A DNA stretch of 64,000 nt from a phage, in sequence record PV730300.1; one strand, given 5' to 3'. A program made the position numbers and the translations under genes. Positions within the stretch are counted from its first letter, which is position 1; each line of letters opens with the position of its first letter. Positions 2,956 to 57,895 of the stretch are shown in pieces. Under the pieces are notes generated by a model, which had not been told where the DNA came from, searched no databases, and was given only the letters and a program-made list of their open reading frames with translations.

Positions 2956-4537
2956 GCCCGAAAAATGTTGATAGCTTTCGCCTATGAAAAACCGACACAG
3001 AGCAAAACTGAATAAATCACGGTATCAAGCTAATCAACCATCAAATGAATAACCATACACCCCAGGGCAAAAGGCCGTCAGAGAGCTATTTATAGCGTTT
3101 AAAATCGATCAACAGCCAACAACAAACCATCAAAAACACCCTTTTACCTCCTTTCTAGTGCAATGATAACCATTATCATCTACCCATGATTATCTATGCA
3201 ATATAAGCGCATAGTTATAGTGTTGATAATAGTTCGCAACAACTAACCAACAAACAACATAAAACAATAAGCAAACTAATCATAATCAAAGGAATAATAG
3301 CAAGATGATTGATAACGGCAAACAATTAAACCGTGATGAATAGTAAGCAAAATAACGATAACACGACAAAACAACCAACTAACGAACAATAACAAACGAA
3401 ACCATTAAAATAATAACTATTGCCATAATAGTAACTGAATGAAATCATTACAAAACAAATCATTCCCAGGATCATCATTAGCACGCTATGCCGGACACAT
3501 AGCGAGCTAATAATAAGCCAACTACACCCCAACAATCATAACCATCGGTGATGGTTATTTCTTGTTACTGCGTAGCTTGCAATAATTGCAAGCGTAATGA
3601 CGCTTACACTTATTGCGCTGGCTTATTATTAGCATTATATGTAATTACCAAGATCATAACATTAGCGCAATAACAATAATCATTGTAATGGTTACAATAT
3701 GAAATCATTAGCAAGATGAATAATTGCACGTAGCAACATGAGCGAATAGCGACAGGTTGCATAGTGTGCACATAATAGAATAAAAGTCAATAATTTTGGG
3801 GGCGAAATGTTACCGCCAGGGGCGGGAATGTTGAGCACTAAGAAAAGAGATAAACCTTAATCATGGGGGGCGTAAATATCCGAGGATTGCCAACGGCGAT
3901 CCGGTAGGATGTTGAGCAAGTTCTCTTAAACGTAAATAAAATCAGAAAATTCTTGATTTATTTTAGTTTTTATGTTAATAAACGTTTAAATAATAATCAT
4001 TCTCATATAGATAATAGTCTGCTTGTCATGAGCGGGATCGGTTGACATTGTTCCGTCATATGATGAAGTTGCCAAACCATTGATAAATAAGTGTTTGTGT
4101 GATTTATAATCAAATGGCCCACCTTGTCGCTATGTTGGTATGAGCCTTGCATAAGTCATTGAATACAAATGATAATTATTCTCATTCGCATGATATTTGG
4201 GAATTGTCGCTGCGTGGACCTGACGGCCCGAAAATTCGCGTTAAGCACTTCTTACGTATGCGCCATGATTTTTGCCATATTATATTGATTCTATTAGATA
4301 TTCTTGCCATGATTGCCATGAAACAGGGTGTCCCGAAATAATCTCTCCCCGTAGATATTTTGGGTTACTTTTTATACAAGAGTAGGGTGTCAAAAATAAT
4401 CGGTATATATGGGATAATTGATAGGAATCCCCTATGATAATTCGATTGTAATTCCCTGAGATTGATCGTATGATGTTGGTAGATGTTAGTGATTGATGAT
4501 TGCCATGAAAGATGGCTAACGATGAGAGGAGATTATC

Positions 4538-5778: not shown

Positions 5779-6027
5779 TTGTGTGCAATGATCACACCAC
5801 AACAGAATGAAGCAGCAATGGATCTTCTTGATAGTTTGTATTTCGATAATTGGTACTCTGAATGTGAATGGATGAATATGCAAACTCTGAAAGAGAAAAC
5901 AGAAGCGTTGATTACAGTAGATCAATTTCTTGCAGAGACGGAAAGAATGAACTATGATATGGCATCTCGCGCACGACGCGTTTCCATTTTCAATAAAATG
6001 TTAGCATTATGGGGAGGTAGAAAATGA
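5779..6027 (+). CDS. hypothetical protein
   Basis: ORF track. Confidence 0.45.
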   Translation: MCAMITPQQNEAAMDLLDSLYFDNWYSECEWMNMQTLKEKTEALITVDQFLAETERMNYDMASRARRVSIFNKMLALWGGRK

Positions 6028-6485
6028 GACAATTCACTATACTGGCAGCTTATGTGCAATGTGTTCACGATTATGTTAGTGCTCATATAGGTTTGCTGGA
6101 AGTTAATAGTAAAATTGAAGGCAATGTGGGTACTGTCTATGTGCAACATACTTTATCTATCGTGCCGTTTAAAGTGTTCAGTGTTGTAGCTGCCGATTAC
6201 AATCGTGTAGATGTGTGTTTCTTGGATCATAATTTTCGTAACGCACTAGATAATATCGAAGATTATCTTCCCGTGAAACCTTTGTCATTTCCACCGAGTC
6301 GTGCAAATAATGTAGTGACAAACCTTAATGAAAGGAATGTGGCTATGCACAAAAAAGTCCGTCAACTGAAAATGCTGATGGAAATGCAAGAAGAGATTGA
6401 AAAAGAACTGAAAGAAGATTTTGGTATGCTTCCAAAAGACGCTTTGAAATGGTATGATGAACTAGGAAGAGAAAGTTATGAATAA
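6024..6485 (+). CDS. hypothetical protein (153 aa)
   Basis: ORF track; ATGA overlap. Confidence 0.5.
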   Translation: MRQFTILAAYVQCVHDYVSAHIGLLEVNSKIEGNVGTVYVQHTLSIVPFKVFSVVAADYNRVDVCFLDHNFRNALDNIEDYLPVKPLSFPPSRANNVVTNLNERNVAMHKKVRQLKMLMEMQEEIEKELKEDFGMLPKDALKWYDELGRESYE

Positions 6486-6672
6486 AGGAACTACTGTATA
6501 TTTAGTAACAAAGAATACCCCAGGCTGGAGCCAATGCAGCACTGTCCCTTACAAGATCTGTGCAACATTAGAACTAGCACAACGTGCAGAAGCAGAAGTG
6601 GATGCCATGCGATACAGCTACGGTGAAATCATTCCTTTCACTCTTGAACAAGAAGGAGCATACAATGTTTAA
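6478..6672 (+). CDS. hypothetical protein
   Basis: ORF track. Confidence 0.4.
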   Translation: MNKGTTVYLVTKNTPGWSQCSTVPYKICATLELAQRAEAEVDAMRYSYGEIIPFTLEQEGAYNV

Positions 6673-6763
6673 AGAAGGTCATGTCTACCGTTTCCAGGAT
6701 GAAGTTTATAAACGTTTGGTTGTTGCTACCATCGGCGTATCTTTTGTTTAAAAGGGGAATGTT

Positions 6764-20426: not shown

Positions 20427-20455
20427 AAAGGCACCCACTTGGGTGCCTTTGTTTT
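20427..20455. terminator. bidirectional terminator at convergence of rightward and leftward blocks
   Basis: GGCACCC-ACTT-GGGTGCC hairpin flanked by T-runs on both strands. Confidence 0.55.
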
Positions 20456-20726
20456 ATTCTTCGTTAGATTGCGTCTCAGACGCGTTAAATTCGGTTTCAG
20501 TACAACTTGCTAGGTAACTTATATTTTGCATCACTACAACTACAGGTGTTTGAAGTTTATCTTCTAGCCCCGCAGCCACTTGAGCCAAGGCATTATCAAT
20601 ATTTGATTTCCTAACGCCTGTTCCATGTCCTGTTGCCAAGTAAAGATTACCTTCCCCTTTTTGCGTAGCATTAGCAAAGTAGTAAACGTAATGTGCAAGG
20701 TAGTAATCACGGATTTCTTCAGTCAT
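20454..20726 (-). CDS. hypothetical protein (90 aa), last gene of Sir2 operon
   Basis: ORF track; RBS AGGAGAATAAA. Confidence 0.5.
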   Translation of the reverse strand: MTEEIRDYYLAHYVYYFANATQKGEGNLYLATGHGTGVRKSNIDNALAQVAAGLEDKLQTPVVVVMQNISYLASCTETEFNASETQSNEE

Positions 20727-20769: not shown

Positions 20770-21585
20770 TTATTTGTTTAAGTGGTCTTCGACCATTTTA
20801 ATGAAACCTTCATTGCTGAAGGCTGTTGCAGCTTTTTCTCGGTAAACAAAAACTCCACGATCTTCATAGAGAAGTGTTTCTTCGTAATTAACTCCAGGGT
20901 TAACTACAACCATTTTTGTACCCATACTAAGCGCAGGGAATAATTCCCAATTAAAATTGATAACTTGGTTTGAACATCCTACTACTACAACCAAATCTTG
21001 CATGGTCAAAGTATCGAACAAGTGAGCCATATCTGCATACAAAGGTGCAGCCTCACCAAAAAATACAACATTAGGCTTCACCCAGTTATAATCATCTATG
21101 TTTATACTATTGTAACCAATATCTACCAGTGTTTTGTAATCTCCAGGATGCATACGGTAAACTACTTCAGGGAGATATCCGTGCACGTGAATAACAGAAT
21201 CTCTGTCTACACCTGCTCGCTCTAGTAGATCATCAACGTTTGTTGTCAAGTTTACTATTTGGTTAGGATATTCCTTAAACCATTTTGCTATTTGAATATG
21301 TGCAGCATTAGGTTGTACATCTTTAAGTTCAACACGCCTTTTGTTATAAAATTCGTGTGTTTTGGCATACAAATCCATACCGTTCTCGTCTACACCACCG
21401 ACCACCGGAAGATCTGGAGATGTTCTAACACGATAACCTGCCTGGAAAGCTCCAATATCGCAGACCTCTTCTAAATCATATTCTTCCCATAAGGCACGAC
21501 CACTATCGGTGTCTGTTCGGAATGTTCTAATCCCACTATCTGCACTTAAACCTGCACCGCTTACAAAAATCACTCGTCTTGGCAT
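20770..21585 (-). CDS. Sir2-family (sirtuin-like, NAD-binding) protein lacking the zinc ribbon
   Basis: GAGLSADSGIRTFR, NVDDLLERAG, HVHG, VVVVGCS motifs; no CxxC pairs; RBS GAGGAGG. Confidence 0.7.
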   Translation of the reverse strand: MPRRVIFVSGAGLSADSGIRTFRTDTDSGRALWEEYDLEEVCDIGAFQAGYRVRTSPDLPVVGGVDENGMDLYAKTHEFYNKRRVELKDVQPNAAHIQIAKWFKEYPNQIVNLTTNVDDLLERAGVDRDSVIHVHGYLPEVVYRMHPGDYKTLVDIGYNSINIDDYNWVKPNVVFFGEAAPLYADMAHLFDTLTMQDLVVVVGCSNQVINFNWELFPALSMGTKMVVVNPGVNYEETLLYEDRGVFVYREKAATAFSNEGFIKMVEDHLNK

Positions 21586-22119: not shown

Positions 22120-22773
22120 CTATACCAGACTTTGTAGGTATTTGTCAAGGGCTTCTTGATCTCCTTGACAAACATAGCAACGGAAGTCTTGAGCCGAAGG
22201 TTGTTTATTTTCATCCCAGTCCCAATAAACATTACCCTTATAACGTGAACCAGGAAACTCAAAAGAGGCTGTATGTGTAATGTATCCTGGGCCACCAGTG
22301 AAATCACAGAATGAGAATTGGGGGTATGCCGCCTTTACTGCCTCAATAAACCAAGCTTTACGATCTAAAGCTTCATTGATGCTATATGCATGTCTCTCCA
22401 TTTCTTCCCACGTTTTCCAGACACTTCTTTCATCAGGAGAAAAGACAAGCCATTCTGGAAGGTAGAGAGTGTCATAGTAATCATCATATTCGATCTCGGA
22501 GGCGCACGAAGCTGACTCCTCCAGTTTTGAGTAATCAAAAGCAGAATATACCCACCAACCATCTTCCAGTAAGGCTTTGACAGGGACGAAGCCTTTATCA
22601 GCATATTGATCGAATTGTTTGACACGGTGGCTTGTGCAGTCTTCAAACTCACATTCTAAACGATATGCACCTTTTCGACGAGCCTCAAGACCGTGTGTAC
22701 TGAAAATAACAACACTTCCTTCACCATCATTACGATCTACTTGATAAGCAACTACTGGTTTTGAATTTGACAT
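22120..22773 (-). CDS. hypothetical protein (217 aa)
   Basis: ORF track. Confidence 0.5.
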   Translation of the reverse strand: MSNSKPVVAYQVDRNDGEGSVVIFSTHGLEARRKGAYRLECEFEDCTSHRVKQFDQYADKGFVPVKALLEDGWWVYSAFDYSKLEESASCASEIEYDDYYDTLYLPEWLVFSPDERSVWKTWEEMERHAYSINEALDRKAWFIEAVKAAYPQFSFCDFTGGPGYITHTASFEFPGSRYKGNVYWDWDENKQPSAQDFRCYVCQGDQEALDKYLQSLV

Positions 22774-23456
22774 TATTTCTCCTTATCTAGAAGATTGTTA
22801 GACAAAAACACGGCACGAGCAAAACCACGAGCGGTTAGGGATCTAAGTTGTTTTGTTTTTGCACTAGCTCCACCTAAGCTTTTCCAACCCCAGAAGCAGC
22901 CTATATGATCTACTGGTTTCTTCACTGGTTGAACAAAACCATTGCCGTGCCAAATACAAGTTTTCTTTGTATACCCATCACGGGTAGGCATTTTAGGATG
23001 AAAGCTTCCTTCCTCTTCAAACAAATACCCACCATATTCATAAGGATCAAAGTAAAAATCGGGTTTACGCCATAAGGTTGAAAGTTTACCTACTGGGTTC
23101 TCAATCATCCAAGGAACATTATATTTGTTACCCAAAGCTTCCACTACACGAATATTAGCTAAAGCTTCATCTAATTCCTCTGTGCTACGTTCGTGTTTGC
23201 TACCACTACCTGCTAACATAGTGCAAGGTGGAAATCCAAAAATAATATCGGGTTTAGGTATCCCATGATCTTCAGGGTTGAATGTAGAATCTATCCAGGC
23301 ATTCACATAGGTTATGTTTGGGTGCTCCATCCTAACCTCGTATTTACCGTGGTCCCCTTCGTCAGCGTTCACACAAAAACACTTGTGACCTGCTTCGGCA
23401 TAACGTAACACCATGATCCCAGATCCGTCAAACATAGACAAAACTGTTTTACTCAT
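22773..23456 (-). CDS. cytosine-C5 methyltransferase-like protein (compact, no target-recognition domain)
   Basis: LSMFDGSG (motif I-like), FGFPPCT (PC motif IV-like), IENPVG (ENV-like motif VI); ATG at 23456 after GGAGGGG. Confidence 0.5.
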   Translation of the reverse strand: MSKTVLSMFDGSGIMVLRYAEAGHKCFCVNADEGDHGKYEVRMEHPNITYVNAWIDSTFNPEDHGIPKPDIIFGFPPCTMLAGSGSKHERSTEELDEALANIRVVEALGNKYNVPWMIENPVGKLSTLWRKPDFYFDPYEYGGYLFEEEGSFHPKMPTRDGYTKKTCIWHGNGFVQPVKKPVDHIGCFWGWKSLGGASAKTKQLRSLTARGFARAVFLSNNLLDKEK

Positions 23457-23862
23457 TACCCCTCCATTTAAGACAAGCCATAACTTTACGCCAATCACTT
23501 TCTGTAAGAAAAATCTCGTTTGCTTTCTTCCACAAATCTAAATCGTGAAGGGTTGGAATACGATATGTTAGTTCACAGAATCTATGCTCTTCTTCTGTAA
23601 TATAACCAAAATGCAGAGCCACATCGTGAAACCAACACCAACCATGCATCTCTCGAACAACATGGTCATGCTGAGACATTGTTTTATGCCGTAAACCTAA
23701 CCAACAAGGAACAGATACTTTAGTAGTCTTTAATCTGTGATTAACAGTATTAGAGTATTCAATAATAGCTGTCAGTTTCAATCGTGCTTTTTCTAAATCC
23801 TCATGGGTCACTTTGAAATAACTTTCTGAAAGATATCCACACATATTAATAACCTCCTTCAA
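23449..23862 (-). CDS. hypothetical His-rich protein
   Basis: ORF track. Confidence 0.45.
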   Translation of the reverse strand: MKEVINMCGYLSESYFKVTHEDLEKARLKLTAIIEYSNTVNHRLKTTKVSVPCWLGLRHKTMSQHDHVVREMHGWCWFHDVALHFGYITEEEHRFCELTYRIPTLHDLDLWKKANEIFLTESDWRKVMACLKWRGNE

Positions 23863-24787
23863 AAGGCTTAACTACATGTTGATTAGCTTTAAAACGTTCA
23901 ACATAGTCGTTTTCACCCATGTTTTCATATAGCTTAGTAACAACATAAAAGTTTTCCCAAGCATACTCCCTAAACCAACCACTAGTGATGGATGTGCAGA
24001 CTTTAGATAAAGCCATTATAAAACTTTGCTTAGGGGTTGGACCTCCGATCTCTCCACCGAAAGGAATTTGTGAACGTTCCAAAGCCAAAACACACGCTTC
24101 TTCATAAACACCTAATAGGCGCACATGTTTTGGTTGAGCAAAAAACTTTTCTTTGCTGGTCATAACTTCACTTCCATCTTTCATATAAGATTTATATGCT
24201 GGAGCATCCATTACCGCGATTGCTTCATGGATAGAATCATGATCATAAACATACGGAACCTCATCACCTTTAAAGAAGTCTTTACTTTTTACGTTTAAGT
24301 TTGGATGAGAGTAAGTGTATGTTTCTTTCTCACGCAACTCATAAATACTCTTAAGATTTTCTGGGATCTTTGCGCCCAGTGACCGCATGAAATGAATATC
24401 TTTCATAGTTTTAAAGAAGTGAGGACTATCCTTTTTAAAACGATGACTCATTTTAAGAAGGTAGAGCACATCTAAAGGAGCAACAACATGTCCAGCGTAA
24501 GTTCGACGAACATCCTCAGAATCTTCACAATAACTAATCAAAGCTTCTGTGCTATCTCCTTGAGAAGCAATATCGTATTCCAAATGTGCACCAGCTATCA
24601 TTTTGACATGGCCTTTGTTCCCTTTACGTTCTACAAGTTCAACAAACTCATCTTGAGAGAACATTTTTGATAATTCTTCCCACTCTTGTTCTGTACACAG
24701 GTAATCTAAATCTACACAAGGGCGATACAAGTCTTTTCCCATGTCCATAGCATGAATTTGCAATGCACGGCTACCAATTAACACCAT
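23846..24787 (-). CDS. putative nucleotidyltransferase-fold protein
   Basis: N-terminal IGSRA...VDLDYL resembles GS...DxD NTase signature; tentative. Confidence 0.35.
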   Translation of the reverse strand: MVLIGSRALQIHAMDMGKDLYRPCVDLDYLCTEQEWEELSKMFSQDEFVELVERKGNKGHVKMIAGAHLEYDIASQGDSTEALISYCEDSEDVRRTYAGHVVAPLDVLYLLKMSHRFKKDSPHFFKTMKDIHFMRSLGAKIPENLKSIYELREKETYTYSHPNLNVKSKDFFKGDEVPYVYDHDSIHEAIAVMDAPAYKSYMKDGSEVMTSKEKFFAQPKHVRLLGVYEEACVLALERSQIPFGGEIGGPTPKQSFIMALSKVCTSITSGWFREYAWENFYVVTKLYENMGENDYVERFKANQHVVKPFEGGY

Positions 24788-24851
24788 AATATTTCTCCTC
24801 TATTGGTTGATAGGTTAAGTTTATCAAGCTTCCAGATTCCTGTCAATAAAA

Positions 24852-24872
24852 AACCCGCCGAAGCGGGTTATT
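24852..24872 (-). terminator. rho-independent terminator (ACCCGC-TTCG-GCGGGT + T-run)
   Basis: Same hairpin sequence as 20108 terminator, here oriented for the minus strand. Confidence 0.5.
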
Positions 24873-24877
24873 ATTTA

Positions 24878-25150
24878 CTAACACATTGAGGAAGAAGAGA
24901 TCCAAACACCTCTTGTGGTTAAACCATTTTCATCCAACTCTACACCATAATCTTCACAAATGAAATCAATATAGTGATCTGCGGCTGACGTTCCTGTAGG
25001 GTAATAAGTTTCTCCGTTACCGTAGTCACCTATCCAAGCTTGTTCCTGAAACTGTTCACAAAGTTCTTCAATCTCCTTACGAAACTTTCTTTGTGCTTGT
25101 TCCATCTCTTTAACTTTCTTTTTTATCAGCAGTTCGCCTTCAGACTCCAC
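24878..25150 (-). CDS. small acidic protein, W-x-SSS-C C-terminal family (member 1)
   Basis: C-terminus GVWISSSSMC; helical N-terminus. Confidence 0.5.
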   Translation of the reverse strand: MESEGELLIKKKVKEMEQAQRKFRKEIEELCEQFQEQAWIGDYGNGETYYPTGTSAADHYIDFICEDYGVELDENGLTTRGVWISSSSMC

Positions 25151-25159
25151 AATCTCTCC

Positions 25160-25378
25160 TTAACAGCTACTACTGTGCCAAACGCCTTGAGAATTAACGA
25201 CGAAACCATCATCACCTTCGCCATAACAAGAAGAGGATTGCCAATCTTCAAAACAGATTGCGTCATTTTCTAAACTAAGACCAAAACCAGCATCTTCAGC
25301 TTCTTTTGTAAGTTCGTCCACTAAAGCCATAATAGCTTGGGCTTTTTCAGTTAATTCTTCAACATTACGATCACTCAT
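25160..25378 (-). CDS. small acidic protein, W-x-SSS-C C-terminal family (member 2)
   Basis: C-terminus GVWHSSSC plus internal EDWQSSSC; start at MSDRNV (TAATG overlap). Confidence 0.5.
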   Translation of the reverse strand: MSDRNVEELTEKAQAIMALVDELTKEAEDAGFGLSLENDAICFEDWQSSSCYGEGDDGFVVNSQGVWHSSSC

Positions 25379-25692
25379 TAGTATTTCTCCTCTGGTTGGA
25401 AAACTGAACGACAAGCCCACATACTAGCTTCTTTTAAATGTTTAATAGCACAACGGATTTGATCAATACGTTCGTATGCAAGATCTAATTCTTTTTCTGT
25501 GCCGTCAAAAGACCCATGATATGCTTCACAATACTCTTCCTCTAAAGCTTTGAAGATTAAACCTAAACGCTCTTCTGCATCTTTAATAGCGTTAACCTTG
25601 CCAATCTTATCGTCAGTATGCGCCTTATAACCTTTGATATCTTCGATTCCCACTTTACCCCCTATTAACAACTTAAAGAAGATGGATGCCAA
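25378..25692 (-). CDS. hypothetical protein
   Basis: ORF track; start uncertain. Confidence 0.4.
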   Translation of the reverse strand: MASIFFKLLIGGKVGIEDIKGYKAHTDDKIGKVNAIKDAEERLGLIFKALEEEYCEAYHGSFDGTEKELDLAYERIDQIRCAIKHLKEASMWACRSVFQPEEKY

Positions 25693-25862
25693 TTTGTCCC
25701 AGTATTCTCATTTTCATCTTCTGGATCATAATAACCACCCATCCCATATTCAGGGGAGAAACGGAAACCTTTACCAGTCTCATCTGCTAACTGCTCTGCT
25801 TCCGCTAAAGCCTCATAAGCTGCTTTTACGGCTTCTTCTACTGTTTTAAACTTGGTCGTCAT
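25665..25862 (-). CDS. small acidic protein, W-x-SSS-C C-terminal family (member 3)
   Basis: C-terminus TNWHPSSLSC. Confidence 0.5.
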   Translation of the reverse strand: MTTKFKTVEEAVKAAYEALAEAEQLADETGKGFRFSPEYGMGGYYDPEDENENTGTNWHPSSLSC

Positions 25863-26136
25863 AAAATTTCTCCTCTCCTAAAGACATGTTGACATGAAAT
25901 GCACGATATGTAAATTCGTTGTCCGTTGTGTTTGAATAAAACTCAAATTGAACAACACCGTCTTGAGAAGACAGATACATGCCAATTTGAACTGTTCCTT
26001 CTGGTACCAGGTAAGCATACTCTGGACGTAGTGTTACATTGTAAAAATAAAGTTCCCCAACACCCATTTCATCCCAAGCTTCCCAAGCGGTAACGAAGTT
26101 ACTTTCAAAACTTGTTACTGATCCGAACTCTGCCAT
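25846..26136 (-). CDS. hypothetical protein
   Basis: ORF track. Confidence 0.45.
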   Translation of the reverse strand: MAEFGSVTSFESNFVTAWEAWDEMGVGELYFYNVTLRPEYAYLVPEGTVQIGMYLSSQDGVVQFEFYSNTTDNEFTYRAFHVNMSLGEEKFYDDQV

Positions 26137-26627
26137 AAAACCTCCTCAATCTTGTAGTTTGACTCCATCTCCAACACATTTCCACGAACGTCTCTCCGAA
26201 GAAAGGCATAAGCTTTATTAGGTATTGTAGACTCATATTTAACCATATCTGGCACAGCAAAAGATACTACTACTCCTGCTGGGCTTCTGTCAAGAGCCTT
26301 ATTAATATTTCTAAGGATATCGTTAGCCAAGATTTCTGCCAATTCTCCAAGAACAGTTTCGGTTATATCTTTATATCCCATTAAGTATTTGTTGATATCT
26401 TTCATCTCTGTATTGTTCAGAGTATAGTCCAAAGGATAGAAATTCAAAGCGGAGTCACTTTTATGTGTCCACATGAAATGCACCCGATCAGAGCAGAATC
26501 GTAACCCTCTGTGAAGAATATCTTCTACAACAGGGAGAATTTCTTTTGTTACATCATTAACCATGTTGTAATCTAAGATTTCTGCCAAGTTTGTTCTTTG
26601 TTCACCACGTTTACGTTTAGGAATCAC
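26115..26627 (-). CDS. hypothetical protein (170 aa)
   Basis: ORF track. Confidence 0.45.
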   Translation of the reverse strand: MIPKRKRGEQRTNLAEILDYNMVNDVTKEILPVVEDILHRGLRFCSDRVHFMWTHKSDSALNFYPLDYTLNNTEMKDINKYLMGYKDITETVLGELAEILANDILRNINKALDRSPAGVVVSFAVPDMVKYESTIPNKAYAFLRRDVRGNVLEMESNYKIEEVLWQSSDQ

Positions 26628-27198
26628 TTGTTATTGCCCTCATTACCAAAGGTCGTAGAAAATCGTAAATCTCTTGTTTTGTTTTCCCACGAATGTTTAA
26701 ACAAGGAACATTATTGGCTTTAGCTATCTTCCAAGCCGTAGCTGTTCCACCTTTTGCATCTCCATGTTTATCAGCATTAGCACAAGCCAACAAGAAACAT
26801 GATGGAGCAGGATTCTCCAAATCTCTACCTAACACTTGATGCACATTACGTTGGTGCAATTTTCTAGCACCCTGCTTAAGCTTTTCATAGGCTGGGTGAA
26901 CATCTTTGATCCATTGCACAGAGATAGCATAGTTCATTGTATCTGGTTTTGCAAGAACAATAACATCCCCTGGAATCTGATTACCTTTGAAATTTTCCCA
27001 AGGAACATAAATCTCCTTGTTAGTAGGATTTTCAGACTCTTGGACACCTGTTTCAAAAGCAGAATCACTACCCTCTGCCTTCCCAGACCTTAATTTAAAC
27101 CCAAGGTTTGAAAGCCATTTCCCTATGCCTACCATCAAAGCCCACTCTTCTTCGGATATGTCTCTACTTCCAACTCCCGTATAGAACAGTTCTGCCAT
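26617..27198 (-). CDS. DprA/Smf-like (SLOG superfamily) Rossmann-fold protein
   Basis: GVGSR...SGKAEGSDSA motif pattern; start at MAELFYTG after GAGGTG. Confidence 0.45.
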   Translation of the reverse strand: MAELFYTGVGSRDISEEEWALMVGIGKWLSNLGFKLRSGKAEGSDSAFETGVQESENPTNKEIYVPWENFKGNQIPGDVIVLAKPDTMNYAISVQWIKDVHPAYEKLKQGARKLHQRNVHQVLGRDLENPAPSCFLLACANADKHGDAKGGTATAWKIAKANNVPCLNIRGKTKQEIYDFLRPLVMRAITSDS

Positions 27199-27514: not shown

Positions 27515-28257
27515 TAATCCTCCTCAAGAGTTGAATAAAATTGAAGACCACCGTCCATATCGAAATAAGCAAATGTTAAGTTATTATTGAACACAGATCC
27601 AGTATCCATATAAACACGATTCGCATTGATAATAGGTGTTTTTACATAAGAGTGTCCATGAAACACATAATCCACACCCATCACAACAGGAAGTTTCATT
27701 CCCTCTTTAGCACAATCCACCATATCTCTGTCCCACATAAGTGCTTCAGCAAAACGGTTTTCCTGTGTTTTTGTCATCTTCAAAATGTATTCTGGAATAT
27801 CTGTTACAGGGAGATATTCCAAAGAAGATGGATACCCACCATGAATAAACGCAAGTTTCATGCCTCTGTAGTTAACAATGAGAACAACAGGTAAATCTTC
27901 TGTCATCATTGCTAAGGCTGTAGCTCCTTCTTCACCACATTCTTCAAGGACCGTATATCCTCCATTTTGATACCAACACTCGAAGTAGCTACGATCTCCT
28001 TCCAGCATACCTTTAATCATCATGTCTTCATGATTTCCACGAATAGCATAGCGATGGTGTTTACGAGTAAATTCTAAAACACAACGAAAGTTTTGCTTTC
28101 CACGGTCAGTAAGATCTCCTAAAGATACAACTACATCTGTATCTCGGATACCTAACTTTGCCTTTCCTTTTTCATACAAATTATAACAACCGTGTAGATC
28201 TCCGATTATAAAAAGATCTTGATCGCTTTTAACAGTAATTTCTCTGTGTATGATCAC
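27514..28257 (-). CDS. Ser/Thr protein phosphatase (lambda-phosphatase-like metallophosphatase)
   Basis: GDLHGC, GDLTDRG, GNHE, GHS motifs. Confidence 0.7.
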   Translation of the reverse strand: MIIHREITVKSDQDLFIIGDLHGCYNLYEKGKAKLGIRDTDVVVSLGDLTDRGKQNFRCVLEFTRKHHRYAIRGNHEDMMIKGMLEGDRSYFECWYQNGGYTVLEECGEEGATALAMMTEDLPVVLIVNYRGMKLAFIHGGYPSSLEYLPVTDIPEYILKMTKTQENRFAEALMWDRDMVDCAKEGMKLPVVMGVDYVFHGHSYVKTPIINANRVYMDTGSVFNNNLTFAYFDMDGGLQFYSTLEED

Positions 28258-55969: not shown

Positions 55970-56044
55970 GGCCCTGTAGCTCAATGGGAGAGCTGTCGGC
56001 TCATAACCGATAGGTAGCTGGATCGAAACCAGCCAGGGCCACCA
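55970..56044 (+). tRNA. tRNA-Met (anticodon CAT; could be lysidine-modified Ile2)
   Basis: Manual cloverleaf: 7-bp acceptor GGCCCTG/CAGGGCC, loop CTCATAA, encoded CCA. Confidence 0.65.
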
Positions 56045-56046
56045 AC

Positions 56047-56121
56047 GTCTTTATGGTGTAATGGATAGCACAGGAGTCTTCTAAACTCTTAGTCAAGGTT
56101 CGATTCCTTGTAAAGACACCA
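56047..56121 (+). tRNA. tRNA-Arg (anticodon TCT)
   Basis: Manual fold: loop CTTCTAA, T-arm CAAGG-TTCGATT-CCTTG, CCA end. Confidence 0.65.
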
Positions 56122-56317
56122 GAACATTTTAACATGAATTAGCTCAAGTGATTTGAACCCACTACTGATCATGGTGGCAGAGAATGAGGCAAGTATGTCA
56201 GACATTATAAACAAAGGCCACGGTTATATTAGAAGACATAAATGCTCGAAGAGCACCGTTCGTTGAGAACGGGGGTTGGTGGAGTCACCATTCATGGTAA
56301 AATGTTTTAAAAAACTA

Positions 56318-56346
56318 TTGACAACTAACATTATTTTATGTTAGAT
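56318..56346 (+). promoter_or_regulatory. promoter (ACTATTGACAA box) internal to tRNA cluster
   Basis: TTGACA-N17-TTAGAT immediately upstream of tRNA-Ser. Confidence 0.45.
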
Positions 56347-56355
56347 TATAAGTAT

Positions 56356-56446
56356 GGAAGGGCAAATCGACGTGGCGACGAAAACGGTCTTGAAAACCGC
56401 CGAGCTTGAAAGAGCCTTGGGAGTTCGACTCTCCCTCCTTCCGCCA
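56356..56446 (+). tRNA. tRNA-Ser (anticodon TGA), type II
   Basis: CGGTCTTGAAAACCG anticodon arm matches E. coli tRNA-Ser(UGA); long variable arm; G73; CCA. Confidence 0.6.
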
Positions 56447-56451
56447 GATTA

Positions 56452-56537
56452 GGTAGATTGGTGAAATGGTAGCCACGACAGTTTGCTAAACTGTAGTCGG
56501 AAACGGCGTGTAGGTTCGAGTCCTACATCTACCGCCA
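56452..56537 (+). tRNA. tRNA-Ser (anticodon GCT), type II
   Basis: Acceptor GGTAGAT/ATCTACC, loop TTGCTAA, long variable arm, G73, CCA. Confidence 0.6.
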
Positions 56538-56667
56538 AGTTCTTTTTAATATAGCTTACTTTAATAGAGTAAACTTTCGGCAGATGGCCCCCACCATCTT
56601 ACCGATAACTCATAGTTAGTGGTGTGAACACTGGCTATTTTAAAAAGAATTTAAATATTAGTATTTA

Positions 56668-56755
56668 GGTGAGTTAATTCCGTAGGGGTAGCGGGGCAGA
56701 CTGTAAATCTGTTATCATTGCGATTCGGGTGGTTCGACTCCATCACTCACCACCA
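56668..56755 (+). tRNA. tRNA-Tyr (anticodon GTA), type II
   Basis: GCAGACTGTAAATCTG anticodon arm as in E. coli tRNA-Tyr; A73; CCA; D-arm atypical. Confidence 0.55.
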
Positions 56756-56761
56756 AATTAA

Positions 56762-56847
56762 GATGAGTTGGCTGAATGGTTTAAGCGGCGGACTGTTAAT
56801 CCGTGTTCGAAAGAACGATATAGGTTCAAATCCTATACTCATCGCCA
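56762..56847 (+). tRNA. type-II tRNA (long variable arm, G73) with GTT anticodon (Asn codons); identity uncertain
   Basis: Perfect 7-bp acceptor, loop CTGTTAA, variable arm GTTC-GAAA-GAAC, T-arm ATAGG-TTCAAAT-CCTAT, CCA. Confidence 0.55.
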
Positions 56848-56852
56848 GAATT

Positions 56853-56932
56853 ATGGACTTGTAGAGTTAAGGTAAACCCCCAGTCGCCAAGAGGCTTCTG
56901 AAATTGCAGGTATCGAATCCTGCCGAGTCCCA
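56853..56932 (+). ncRNA. tRNA-like element, isotype unresolved (possible degenerate tRNA)
   Basis: Acceptor-like GGACTTG/CGAGTCC and T-arm-like GCAGG-TATCGAAT-CCTGC but no canonical anticodon arm found. Confidence 0.25.
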
Positions 56933-56937
56933 GCTTT

Positions 56938-57012
56938 GCTCCTATAGTATAATGGCTATTACAACGGTTTTGTAATCCGTGGATCTCTGTTCGATTCAGA
57001 GTGGGAGCACCA
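56938..57012 (+). tRNA. tRNA-Thr (anticodon TGT)
   Basis: Acceptor GCTCCTA/TGGGAGC, loop TTTGTAA, T-arm CTCTG-TTCGATT-CAGAG, CCA. Confidence 0.6.
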
Positions 57013-57287
57013 ACACAACATTAAGAGCACTGTGATTGATCGTCGTATCCTGTGCACAAGGTCTGTTCGAAAGACAGTGTTCTTAGTATTGTGTTGATCA
57101 CACAAAAAGAGTTACCTGAAACTTGACCGGAGTAGGGTTGGATGGGGCAAAAGAAGAAGCGGCTCTCCCATCGACAGCAACGAAGAATAATATTTGACTT
57201 TGGTTTTGTATTATTTTAAGTTAGCTTACCGAACGTAGGGCTAGTCACCCAATGGGATACTCGTCACTGTCCCACTCAATAAAACTA

Positions 57288-57317
57288 TTGACAACCAATA
57301 GTAAAATGTAGTATAGT
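57288..57317 (+). promoter_or_regulatory. promoter (ACTATTGACAA box) internal to tRNA cluster
   Basis: TTGACA-N18-TATAGT upstream of tRNA-Gly. Confidence 0.45.
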
Positions 57318-57328
57318 AAAGATGTAGG

Positions 57329-57402
57329 GCGTTCTTGGTGTAGCGGTAGCATTCCGTCCTTCCAAGTCGGCGGCACGAGTTCGATCCTCGTAGAACGCTC
57401 CA
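57329..57402 (+). tRNA. tRNA-Gly (anticodon TCC)
   Basis: Loop CTTCCAA as in E. coli tRNA-Gly(UCC); T-arm ACGAG-TTCGATC-CTCGT; CCA. Confidence 0.6.
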
Positions 57403-57499
57403 AATTATTTAATAAAGGGTTGCCAGAAAACTTTCTCTTTTACTCATGGTTTTCTCCTTCTCTCACACCTCTTCTGGTTGCCCTTCATTAAATGATTTA

Positions 57500-57575
57500 T
57501 TGGTTTGTAGTGTAGTCCGGTAGCACACGACACTTTGACTGTCGTAGGTTTGGTTCAAATCCAGACAGACCAGCC
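57500..57575 (+). tRNA. tRNA-Gln (anticodon TTG)
   Basis: Anticodon arm CGACA-CTTTGAC-TGTCG; T-loop TTCAAAT; CCA. Confidence 0.6.
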
Positions 57576-57580
57576 ATATA

Positions 57581-57657
57581 ACGGAATTTAGCTCAGTTTG
57601 GTAGAGCATACGCTTTGGGAGCGTAGGGTCGCAGGTTCGAATCCTGCAATTCCGACC
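57581..57657 (+). tRNA. tRNA-Pro (anticodon TGG)
   Basis: Acceptor CGGAATT/AATTCCG; arm TACGC-TTTGGGA-GCGTA; T-loop TTCGAAT; CCA. Confidence 0.65.
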
Positions 57658-57663
57658 AATTTA

Positions 57664-57737
57664 ATGTTTCGTAGTTCAATGGTAGAACCCACGACTGATA
57701 ATCGTGAGACACAAGTTCGATTCTTGTCGAAACAACC
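57664..57737 (+). tRNA. tRNA-Ile (anticodon GAT)
   Basis: Acceptor TGTTTCG/CGAAACA; arm CACGA-CTGATAA-TCGTG; T-loop TTCGATT; CCA. Confidence 0.65.
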
Positions 57738-57741
57738 AGTT

Positions 57742-57811
57742 TCCCGTTAGACTTACAGGATAAGAGTTCCACAGCTTATTGTGATGCTGGTTCGAATCCA
57801 GCACGGGATAC
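57742..57811 (+). ncRNA. tRNA-like element, isotype unresolved
   Basis: T-arm GCTGG-TTCGAAT-CCAGC and acceptor-like TTCCCGT/ACGGGAT but anticodon arm not resolvable by eye; no CCA. Confidence 0.3.
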
Positions 57812-57816
57812 CTAAT

Positions 57817-57895
57817 AGCGGGATAGAGGAGTCTGGTCGTCCTCGCCAGTTTCATATGCTGGAGATCATCGGTTCGAATCCGATTCCCGCCTCCA
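57817..57895 (+). tRNA. tRNA-Met-like (anticodon CAT) with A1-C72 mismatch
   Basis: Arm CCAGT-TTCATAT-GCTGG, T-arm ATCGG-TTCGAAT-CCGAT, CCA; first acceptor pair unpaired. Confidence 0.5.

Follow-up and report, generated by a model that had tools for sequence, protein, structure and literature searches.

A conserved phage module of small proteins with an invariant C-terminal tail and a nucleotidyltransferase-fold partner

Here, we analysed a window of 64,000 nucleotides (64 kb, the whole stretch of DNA under study; sequence record PV730300.1) from a Phapecoctavirus genome, i.e. a phAPEC8-like E. coli myovirus of ~150 kb, with a focus on three small genes between positions 24,878 and 25,862, designated open reading frames (ORFs) A, B and C. 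We found that the encoded proteins are members of a large, uncharacterised and phage-specific family with an invariant C-terminal tail. Together with the product of a gene downstream, a partner with a predicted nucleotidyltransferase (NTase) fold and intact catalytic residues, they make up a conserved two-component phage module. The small proteins are likely functional partners of the NTase. Since the family nearly always sits just upstream of the NTase gene, the arrangement suggests that the enzyme acts on or through the tail.

Results

Three small genes and a downstream NTase gene

A preliminary description of this DNA, made from the sequence alone, had proposed three tandem paralogous genes for small acidic proteins that share a C-terminal motif. 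The three ORFs were indeed found, all on the minus strand, and are listed here with the NTase gene that follows them.

24878-25150, minus strand: ORF A, 90 amino acids (aa), GTG start at 25150; A-type, with GDYGNGETYYP and the tail GVWISSSSMC
25160-25378, minus strand: ORF B, 72 aa, ATG start at 25378; B-type with a double motif
25665-25862, minus strand: ORF C, 65 aa, ATG start at 25862; C-type
23846-24787, minus strand: NTase with the domains DUF7277 and DUF7275 (phrog_2141), 313 aa; 90 bp downstream of ORF A

The C-termini read GVWISSSSMC (A), GVWHSSSC (B) and TNWHPSSLSC (C), and B additionally contains the internal EDWQSSSC, all as quoted before. In ORF B, the internal FEDWQSSSC-YGEGD is followed by the terminal GVWHSSSC; ORF C consists of an N-terminal helix, an F-x-F strand, a YGMGG loop and the tail NWHPSSLSC. 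The acidic character of the proteins was confirmed by isoelectric points (pI) of 4.40 (A), 4.05 (B) and 4.31 (C). A C-terminal W.[SPAT]S.{1,3}C is a rare feature: among the 662 ORFs with 40 codons or more in the six frames of the window, just three have it, and all three lie inside 1 kb.

A good Shine-Dalgarno sequence is present upstream of each of the three ORFs; AAGGAGAG stands just 5' of the GTG of ORF A and GAGGAGAA just 5' of the ATG of ORF B. Orthologues with 74-82% amino-acid identity are encoded on a related contig (L005). The ratio of nonsynonymous to synonymous substitution rates (dN/dS) against these orthologues was 0.14 (B) and 0.06 (C), whereas dS was saturated in the comparison of A (dN 0.16). 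We take A, B and C to be translated and constrained genes. The region 24000-27000 is 99.5% identical to Escherichia phage EF1-1 and is found at an identity of at least 95% in 65 phage records, in which all genes of the locus are labelled 'hypothetical protein'.

Kinship of the three proteins

Pairwise BLASTP comparisons among A, B and C gave nothing significant. All three match the uncharacterised PHROG family phrog_899 (E = 4.7e-14 for A, 1.4e-5 for B and 1.2e-12 for C), each on the C-terminal part of the profile. In profile-profile comparison, the A-type matches the C-type with 98% probability (E = 2e-13), and the match persists at 96.8% (E = 2e-10) without the last 10 residues, whereas the match between the B-type and C-type profiles falls from 90% to 44% once the tail is removed. 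A and C align across the invariant Y-G-x-G...Y-x-P...W-x-x-S-S-x-x-C. Judged by these profiles, A and C are clear homologues and B is a weaker, more distant member. The proposed paralogy thus withstands a proper alignment for A and C, and holds in a weaker form for B. The possibility that we are dealing with chance or low-complexity similarity, or with ORFs that are not genes, can be dismissed: the non-significant pairwise comparisons would fit it, but the profile matches, the size of the family (266 clusters, see below), the dN/dS values of 0.06-0.14, the strong ribosome-binding sites and the annotation of the genes in dozens of phage genomes refute it.

A phage family defined by its tail

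We defined the family as standalone proteins of 50-200 aa whose final residues are W-x-[SAP]-S-S-x-x-C or W-x-x-S-x-C, the Cys being C-terminal, a description that fits A (WISSSSMC), C (WHPSSLSC) and B (WHSSSC plus the internal WQSSSC). Homologues were found in 454 phage records for A and in 322 for B, including T4-like phages of Escherichia, Enterobacter, Klebsiella, Aeromonas, Yersinia and Edwardsiella. Those of ORF A include Entb_45 and PEi20; those of ORF C are 58-97% identical. Named members are ORF136c, ORF137c and the split ORF139c/138c of RB69 as well as ORF063c and ORF064c of Aeromonas phage 31. The split A-type gene of RB69 (positions 3932-4238 of locus L003) is interrupted by a frameshift, its first part ending in GDYGSGRTYYPKGEIVSQWYEK and a stop codon and its second in NGYVITEGAWVSSPALC; the gene is intact in a related locus (L024), and the split copy represents either a pseudogene or an error of sequencing.

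When 1.84 billion representative proteins were searched with a profile, 266 clusters (50% identity) were obtained at E ≤0.001. All are 65-200 aa long, the match reaches the last residue in nearly all of them, and no fusion of the tail family to a larger protein occurs among them. The motif terminates 145 of the 149 newly listed matches of this search. Trp is found at position -7 in 140 of 149 independently found sequences; within these 140, Ser at +3 and the terminal Cys are present in every sequence (140/140 each) and Ser at +4 in 139/140. Position +2 is Ser, Ala or Pro, positions +1, +5 and +6 are free, and in none of the 140 representatives does Thr replace either Ser. A look at the motif in related phages, as recommended in the preliminary description, thus returned an invariant tail in 140 representatives.

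The short tail W-x-x-S-x-C is characteristic of the B-type, where it occurs alongside the conserved internal copy, itself fused to the Gly-rich loop (W-x-S-S-S-C-Y-G-E-G-D). This double motif is kept in orthologues such as ORF063c of Aeromonas phage 31 and in many T4-like phages. The C-type consensus from 117 cluster representatives starts with an amphipathic helix (A..EAE.hADE.G), after which come an F-x-F strand and the invariant loop YGMGG-x-Y-x-P; a linker that is acidic and variable then leads to the tail. The median pI of the family is 4.4. For A, B and C, searches of Pfam, NCBIfam and PADLOC gave no significant match, a hidden Markov model (HMM) comparison with PDB sequences gave none, and similarity of the small proteins to any solved fold was not found.

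An AlphaFold model of A was obtained with a predicted local distance difference test score (pLDDT) of 93.8. Its helix at residues 4-34 agrees with the helical N-terminal part suggested earlier, and in the model the tail and the Gly-rich loop belong to one compact fold.

The partner has a predicted MenT-like fold and a phage distribution

Given the uniform tail, the preliminary description had advised a search for a modifying enzyme nearby, and a candidate was found immediately downstream in the form of the DUF7277/DUF7275 protein. In RB69 and Aeromonas phage 31, the small genes are likewise followed by homologues of the same size (ORF134c and ORF062c, respectively). An AlphaFold model of the protein, built with 44 homologues, reached a pLDDT of 92.8 and a predicted template modelling score of 0.87, and gave the following fold matches (scores).

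MenT1 toxin: 11.5
TglT/MenT3: 10.1
ANT(2''): 9.4
Megavirus poly(A) polymerase: 9.1
MenT4: 8.9
LnuA: 8.6

The protein is hence predicted from its model to be an NTase of the MenT/AbiEii/ANT fold. Enzymes of the MenT/ANT/Lnu group, which belong to the Pol-beta type, add a nucleoside monophosphate (NMP) to a hydroxyl group, either at the 3' end of tRNA (MenT) or on an antibiotic (ANT, Lnu). The signature GS...DxD...E is invariant in the phage protein (G5-S6, D26-x-D28, E70). Only ~150 of the 313 residues align with known enzymes; the rest is a strongly conserved helical region with stretches such as MSHRFKK, YDHDxIHEA and KVCTSITSGWFREYAWEN, for which no match was found. These ~160 extra conserved residues beyond the MenT-aligned part include invariant His, Asp, Lys and Arg. 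A sequence-level link to known NTase families was not found, so that the fold alone connects them: Pfam assigned only DUF7277 and DUF7275 to the 44 homologues and not DUF1814/AbiEii (PF08843), and PADLOC gave no significant match for seven homologues. With a pI of 5.6, the enzyme is mildly acidic.

The NTase occurs in 736 phage records, among them RB69, JS98-like phages, Phapecoctavirus and T4-like phages of Acinetobacter, Klebsiella and Aeromonas, and also in phages linked to distant phyla. A search of 185,579 species, each represented by one genome, returned nine matches, all on contigs of metagenome-assembled genomes (MAGs), from which we conclude that the NTase is essentially restricted to phages. 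Two homologues stand out. The one of Acinetobacter phage phi1_092060 (positions 3492-4445 of locus L064) is labelled 'DefenseFinder protein', while PADLOC models gave no match to it; one of the three family members upstream of it ends in NWSNSES without Cys. In a Phapecoctavirus-like contig (L011, positions 5824-6750), the NTase gene is split in two, giving ORFs of 55 and 209 aa.

Small genes and NTase genes occur together

Among 57 viral contigs with the NTase, ~50 carry one to five tail-motif ORFs directly upstream on the same strand. At 65 of 77 NTase loci, at least one ORF with the strict motif ends no more than 3 kb upstream on the same strand. Motif ORFs numbered 154 in the upstream 3-kb zone and six elsewhere (odds ratio 224), where it has to be considered that the 77 loci share a phylogeny and the p-value of the enrichment hence overstates their independence. 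Per locus, the number of small genes was zero in 12 cases, one in 19, two in 17, three in 15 and four in 14. The main small-protein cluster was present at 52 of 63 loci, whereas other neighbouring gene families reached at most 22 of 63, and unrelated ones at most 20 of 63; the pairing is therefore not a matter of general synteny.

The reciprocal view starting from the small proteins gave a consistent result. The NTase gene lies downstream on the same strand at 9/9 viral loci and at 16/16 metagenome loci with enough downstream sequence, i.e. at all 25 assessable loci. The present locus follows the same rule, with the NTase gene within ~3 kb downstream on the same strand. The candidate enzyme is thus not only close by but linked to the small genes in both directions (65/77 and 25/25).

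The pairing spans Phapecoctavirus, T4-like phages of Escherichia, Aeromonas and Acinetobacter, Pseudomonas Otagovirus and Myxococcus phage Mx1, and was also seen in Pseudomonas phage phiPsa267. By tblastn, adjacent genes were found in several complete genomes, e.g. those of phiR1-RT, Thanatos-1, IME341, myPSH1140, UP87 and ATK47. Eight of the nine MAG contigs carry the pair (bins assigned to Saccharibacteria, Chitinophagales, Bacteriovoracales, Thermosynechococcus and Flavobacteria); the contigs with the pairing are phage-like, and their bins span Saccharibacteria, Bacteroidota, Bacteriovoracales and cyanobacteria. In a Streptomyces phage, whose NTase homologue is distant and shorter, no such pair was seen. 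A Phapecoctavirus-like contig lineage (L009-L011) has no adjacent small gene, and its sole family member is located ~6.9 kb away on the other strand.

The NTase persists without small proteins in phage CC31

The complete 165,540-bp genome of phage CC31 (NC_014662.1) contains the NTase gene in the region 67713-70111. No family member was detected anywhere in this genome, neither by a regular expression for the motif nor with six subfamily HMMs. The NTase gene adjoins a tRNA cluster, with one small ORF in between; ARAGORN predicted seven tRNA genes in the locus and eight are annotated in the record. At the corresponding place, upstream of its NTase gene, the close relative VPA32 carries an A-type and a B-type gene. 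The NTases of the two phages differ in one of 305 residues (dS 0.22, dN/dS 0.009). As the enzyme is thus constrained in CC31 although small proteins are missing, it should have a function of its own, a point that rests on one complete genome and several partial loci. The small proteins, in turn, appear to need the NTase because they were never found without it, which rests on the 25 loci and a handful of complete genomes.

Other features of the array

Three more features were noted within and next to the array.

25378-25653, minus strand: Vs.4/Acb2 homologue, 91 aa, GTG start; between B and C
24852-24869, minus strand: intrinsic-terminator-like hairpin, AACCCGCTTCGGCGGGTT followed by TTTTATT, directly 3' of ORF A; consensus match only
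24818-24846, minus strand: sigma-70-like promoter match, TTGACA, 17 nt spacer and TG-extended TAAACT, preceding the NTase gene; consensus match only

The three small genes are neighbours, yet the term 'tandem' needs to be qualified, as the gene at 25378-25653 separates B from C. Its product matches the Pfam family Acb2_Tad1_hairpin (PF24729, E = 1.2e-16) and T4 Vs.4 (PDB 7uq2, E = 1.8e-28). T4 Vs.4 belongs to the Acb2 family of cyclic-nucleotide sponges, which act against the CBASS defence (cyclic-oligonucleotide-based antiphage signalling system). The related contig L005 lacks this gene and has C, B and A side by side; we therefore regard the gene as an insertion outside the tail family. Only the inserted gene matches PF24729 or the solved Acb2/Vs.4 structures; A, B and C do not.

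The terminator-like hairpin that separates ORF A from the NTase gene is particular to this lineage. In other phages, the last small gene often lies 13-60 bp from the NTase gene and the terminator is not conserved, so it was rejected as a conserved feature of the module. Further upstream, the 170-aa product of the ORF at 26115-26627 (minus strand, phrog_8569) ends in LWQSSDQ, a tail-like sequence without Cys. This is probably a coincidence, since the protein shows no further likeness to the tail family.

Discussion

Why should a phage encode up to five diversified small proteins with the same last residues next to a single NTase? We tentatively suggest that the small proteins are clients of the enzyme. 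The conserved tail would dock at the active site of the NTase, and the hydroxyl group of one of the invariant Ser residues would accept a nucleoside monophosphate (Ser-O-NMP), while the neighbouring Cys and Trp would serve recognition or follow-up chemistry. The one to five paralogues of a phage might then act as modified effectors or decoys early in infection, either for host takeover or for counter-defence. A Ser-O-NMP is proposed because the relatives of the enzyme use the 3'-OH of tRNA (MenT) or hydroxyl groups of antibiotics (ANT, Lnu) as acceptors of NMP. Our preference for nucleotidylylation of a tail Ser, which by analogy with these enzymes is a possible reading short of a probable one, is based on this hydroxyl chemistry, the Ser-only tail, the second motif of the B-type and the presence of several paralogues. 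From the internal copy in the B-type it follows that side chains matter and not the free carboxylate alone, and the numbers of paralogues per locus fit several clients for one enzyme. The wider idea of a so far unrecognised phage system for post-translational modification, in which a MenT-fold NTase modifies the tails of diversified small proteins, perhaps up to a thioether ring, is more doubtful.

Several observations weigh against a modified tail. In the model of A, the tail is not a free end but forms a strand (residues 82-85) and a short helix (86-89) inside the fold at a pLDDT of ~86, with W83 in the beta-strand and SSSM in the terminal helical turn. As the model places the tail within the fold, it may be a structural, ligand-binding or docking element instead of an exposed acceptor. 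The CC31 enzyme works without small proteins, which can therefore not be its sole substrate, and 12 of the 77 NTase loci have no member nearby; the common descent of these loci was mentioned above. The case for tail modification as a whole rests on genomics and predicted structure. The earlier view of the C-terminus as a shared processing, modification or recognition tag is thus upheld insofar as the tail is an invariant family signature with a candidate enzyme nearby, and is challenged by its predicted position inside the fold.

Alternatively, the small proteins could bind the NTase non-covalently via the tail, the N-terminal helix or both. As regulators, they would inhibit or time the enzyme in an antitoxin-like manner, possibly as pseudo-substrates or tRNA mimics; as adaptors, they would be subunits that determine its target specificity. 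We regard this as the main rival reading and as somewhat less likely than the client proposal. There is a precedent: MenA1, a 68-aa protein with a long helix, binds and thereby blocks MenT1, and its gene usually lies upstream of a menT-like gene (PMC10435456). The small genes described here are likewise located upstream and code for strongly acidic proteins with a long N-terminal helix. Linkage to the NTase supports non-covalent binding as much as modification, the predicted folded state of the tail is in line with it, and varied bodies with one common tail would suit adaptors. However, Ser-Ser and Cys are absolutely invariant even in phages whose hosts are distant from each other, which exceeds what an ordinary interface needs, and one to five paralogues per enzyme are unusual for antitoxins. 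The module is also absent from bacterial chromosomes, given only nine MAG-contig loci in 185,579 species genomes. CC31 speaks against a strict antitoxin in particular, as it retains a constrained and catalytically intact NTase without any family member while small proteins are never found alone, the inverse of the usual pattern in toxin-antitoxin pairs; since the NTase persists on its own and the small proteins do not, a toxin-antitoxin pair is argued against. Taken together with the absence from bacterial genomes, CC31 weakens the strict toxin-antitoxin interpretation.

It is improbable that the small proteins are self-sufficient anti-defence or host-takeover proteins, e.g. ligand or metal binders, mimics of nucleic acids or proteins, or sponges, with a binding site formed by the tail and the YGxGG loop and the NTase as a mere neighbour. 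Their acidity and the accessory region, with its Acb2/Vs.4 sponge gene, Sir2-family gene and other accessory genes, would be in keeping with such a role, as would the compact predicted fold shared by tail and Gly-rich loop; the B-type fusion W-x-S-S-S-C-YGEGD suggests that the two are spatially close. Against an independent function, the pairing with the NTase outlasts all other shared neighbours across phage lineages, its occurrence at 25 of 25 loci from the small-protein side is hard to explain via synteny alone, and no similarity was found to Acb2, Tad, the Pfam, NCBIfam and PADLOC families or any solved fold.

A special case of the client proposal invokes the chemistry of ribosomally synthesised and post-translationally modified peptides (RiPPs). 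O-nucleotidylylation of Ser would lead to dehydroalanine, and addition of the Cys thiol would close a C-terminal thioether ring, which would be lanthionine-like or, after decarboxylation of the terminal Cys, similar to aminovinylcysteine (AviCys). Lanthionine and AviCys rings use i,i+3 and i,i+4 spacings of Ser and Cys, and AviCys peptides such as epidermin are typically recognised by a Cys at the very end. Both spacings are present in the tail, as S(+4)-x-x-C-COOH and S(+3)-x-x-x-C; Ser is never replaced, Cys is terminal in 140/140 sequences, several precursors per enzyme are typical of RiPP clusters, and the NTase has the ~160 extra conserved residues mentioned above. Still, we regard such a ring as very improbable. 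LanB, LanM, LanC, LanD or other RiPP enzymes were not found among the neighbours scanned, and NTases are not known to drive dehydration. Moreover, the short tail with S-x-C and the internal motif of the B-type fit poorly, the 'core' is invariant, unlike the usually variable cores of RiPPs, and the proteins, as folded domains of 65-150 aa, are no leader-core peptides.

With regard to the biological role of the module, host takeover or counter-defence is a guess, made because of the accessory region, which contains the Acb2 insertion, a Sir2-family gene, a calcineurin-like phosphoesterase and annotated methyltransferases. The phosphoesterase is encoded at 27517-28257 (minus strand; Pfam Metallophos, E = 1e-12), ~2.7 kb upstream of the array, and is elsewhere annotated as a NinI-like Ser/Thr phosphatase. 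According to a 2026 preprint (10.64898/2026.01.19.700257), phosphorylation inactivates NTases of the AbiEii type and a Ser/Thr phosphatase restores their activity; a link between the phosphoesterase encoded here and the phage NTase is conceivable. The Sir2-family protein is encoded at 20770-21585 (minus strand; Pfam SIR2, E = 1.9e-22), next to a 'sir2-like' ORF of 90 aa at 20454-20726; as Sir2 domains are best known from anti-phage NADases of the host, a phage-encoded Sir2 is unusual. The ORF at 22773-23498 (minus strand) contains the motifs FDGSG and FPPC typical of C5-cytosine methyltransferases and is annotated as a DNA methyltransferase in EF1-1, with no Pfam match at E ≤0.01; a homologue comes after the NTase gene in the contig L009. 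Ten tRNA genes (Met, Arg, Ser, Asn, Thr, Gly, Gln, Pro, Ile, Met) are located at 55970-57895 on the plus strand.

The NTase is found in 736 phage records, including model phages and candidates for therapy, and every protein of the module is annotated as hypothetical. Its relatives are anti-phage toxins that block tRNA charging or enzymes that modify antibiotics. A phage NTase with its own family of tail-tagged partners could be a new mechanism of counter-defence or host takeover and, if the tail is modified, would represent a new kind of protein modification. Literature searches on phrog_899, DUF7275/DUF7277, phage MenT/AbiEii-like enzymes and AMPylation of phage proteins found no description of the module; neither phrog_899 nor DUF7275/DUF7277 is mentioned in any paper searched, and the passages found in Aravind's jumbo-phage survey do not mention the module.

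Comparison with known systems

Small early phage proteins encoded in accessory regions are also known in the form of the Acb2/Vs.4 and Tad sponges, to which A, B and C have no similarity in sequence or fold. ANT(2'') and LnuA act on small-molecule antibiotics and have neither partner proteins nor the C-terminal region specific for DUF7275. Precursors of lanthipeptides and AviCys peptides such as epidermin resemble the phage proteins in their Ser run with Cys as last residue and in the presence of several precursors beside one enzyme, and the tail family indeed combines Ser and a last-residue Cys in its C-terminal core, as in AviCys precursors. In contrast, the phage tails are invariant and sit on folded domains while RiPP cores are variable, and no Pfam family of dehydratases, cyclases or LanD-type decarboxylases was found among the window genes scanned (~20.4-29.2 kb).

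For a protein client, two other systems are instructive: the MNT antitoxin AMPylates its HEPN toxin (type VII toxin-antitoxin systems), and GlnD uridylylates PII. Both likewise pair a Pol-beta-type NTase with a small partner that bears a conserved acceptor residue. The acceptor is Tyr in these systems, whereas Ser is proposed here for a putative modification, and homology of the small proteins to HEPN or PII was not found.

Among known systems, the toxin-antitoxin pairs with a DUF1814 NTase, MenAT and AbiE, come nearest. A sequence-level relation of the phage NTase to their enzymes is missing, so that only the fold and the layout with a small upstream partner are common to both, and the small phage proteins resemble neither MenA1 nor AbiEi in fold or sequence. 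The systems also differ in composition and behaviour. One antitoxin is present there, compared to one to five paralogues in the phage module; the module is restricted to phages; and its NTase persists in the absence of the small proteins, whereas the opposite case was not found. In MenT and AbiEii, a Thr or Ser two residues before the first catalytic Asp is auto-phosphorylated, a position that is not conserved in the phage enzymes, where Cys, Ser or Met occurs. What unites them is the Pol-beta NTase core with GS...DxD, which the phage enzyme has in common with AbiEii/AbiEi, MenT3/MenA3 and SanaTA, and the gene order, as MenAT1 of M. tuberculosis (MenT1 with the 68-aa MenA1) likewise has a small protein with a long helix encoded upstream of its NTase.

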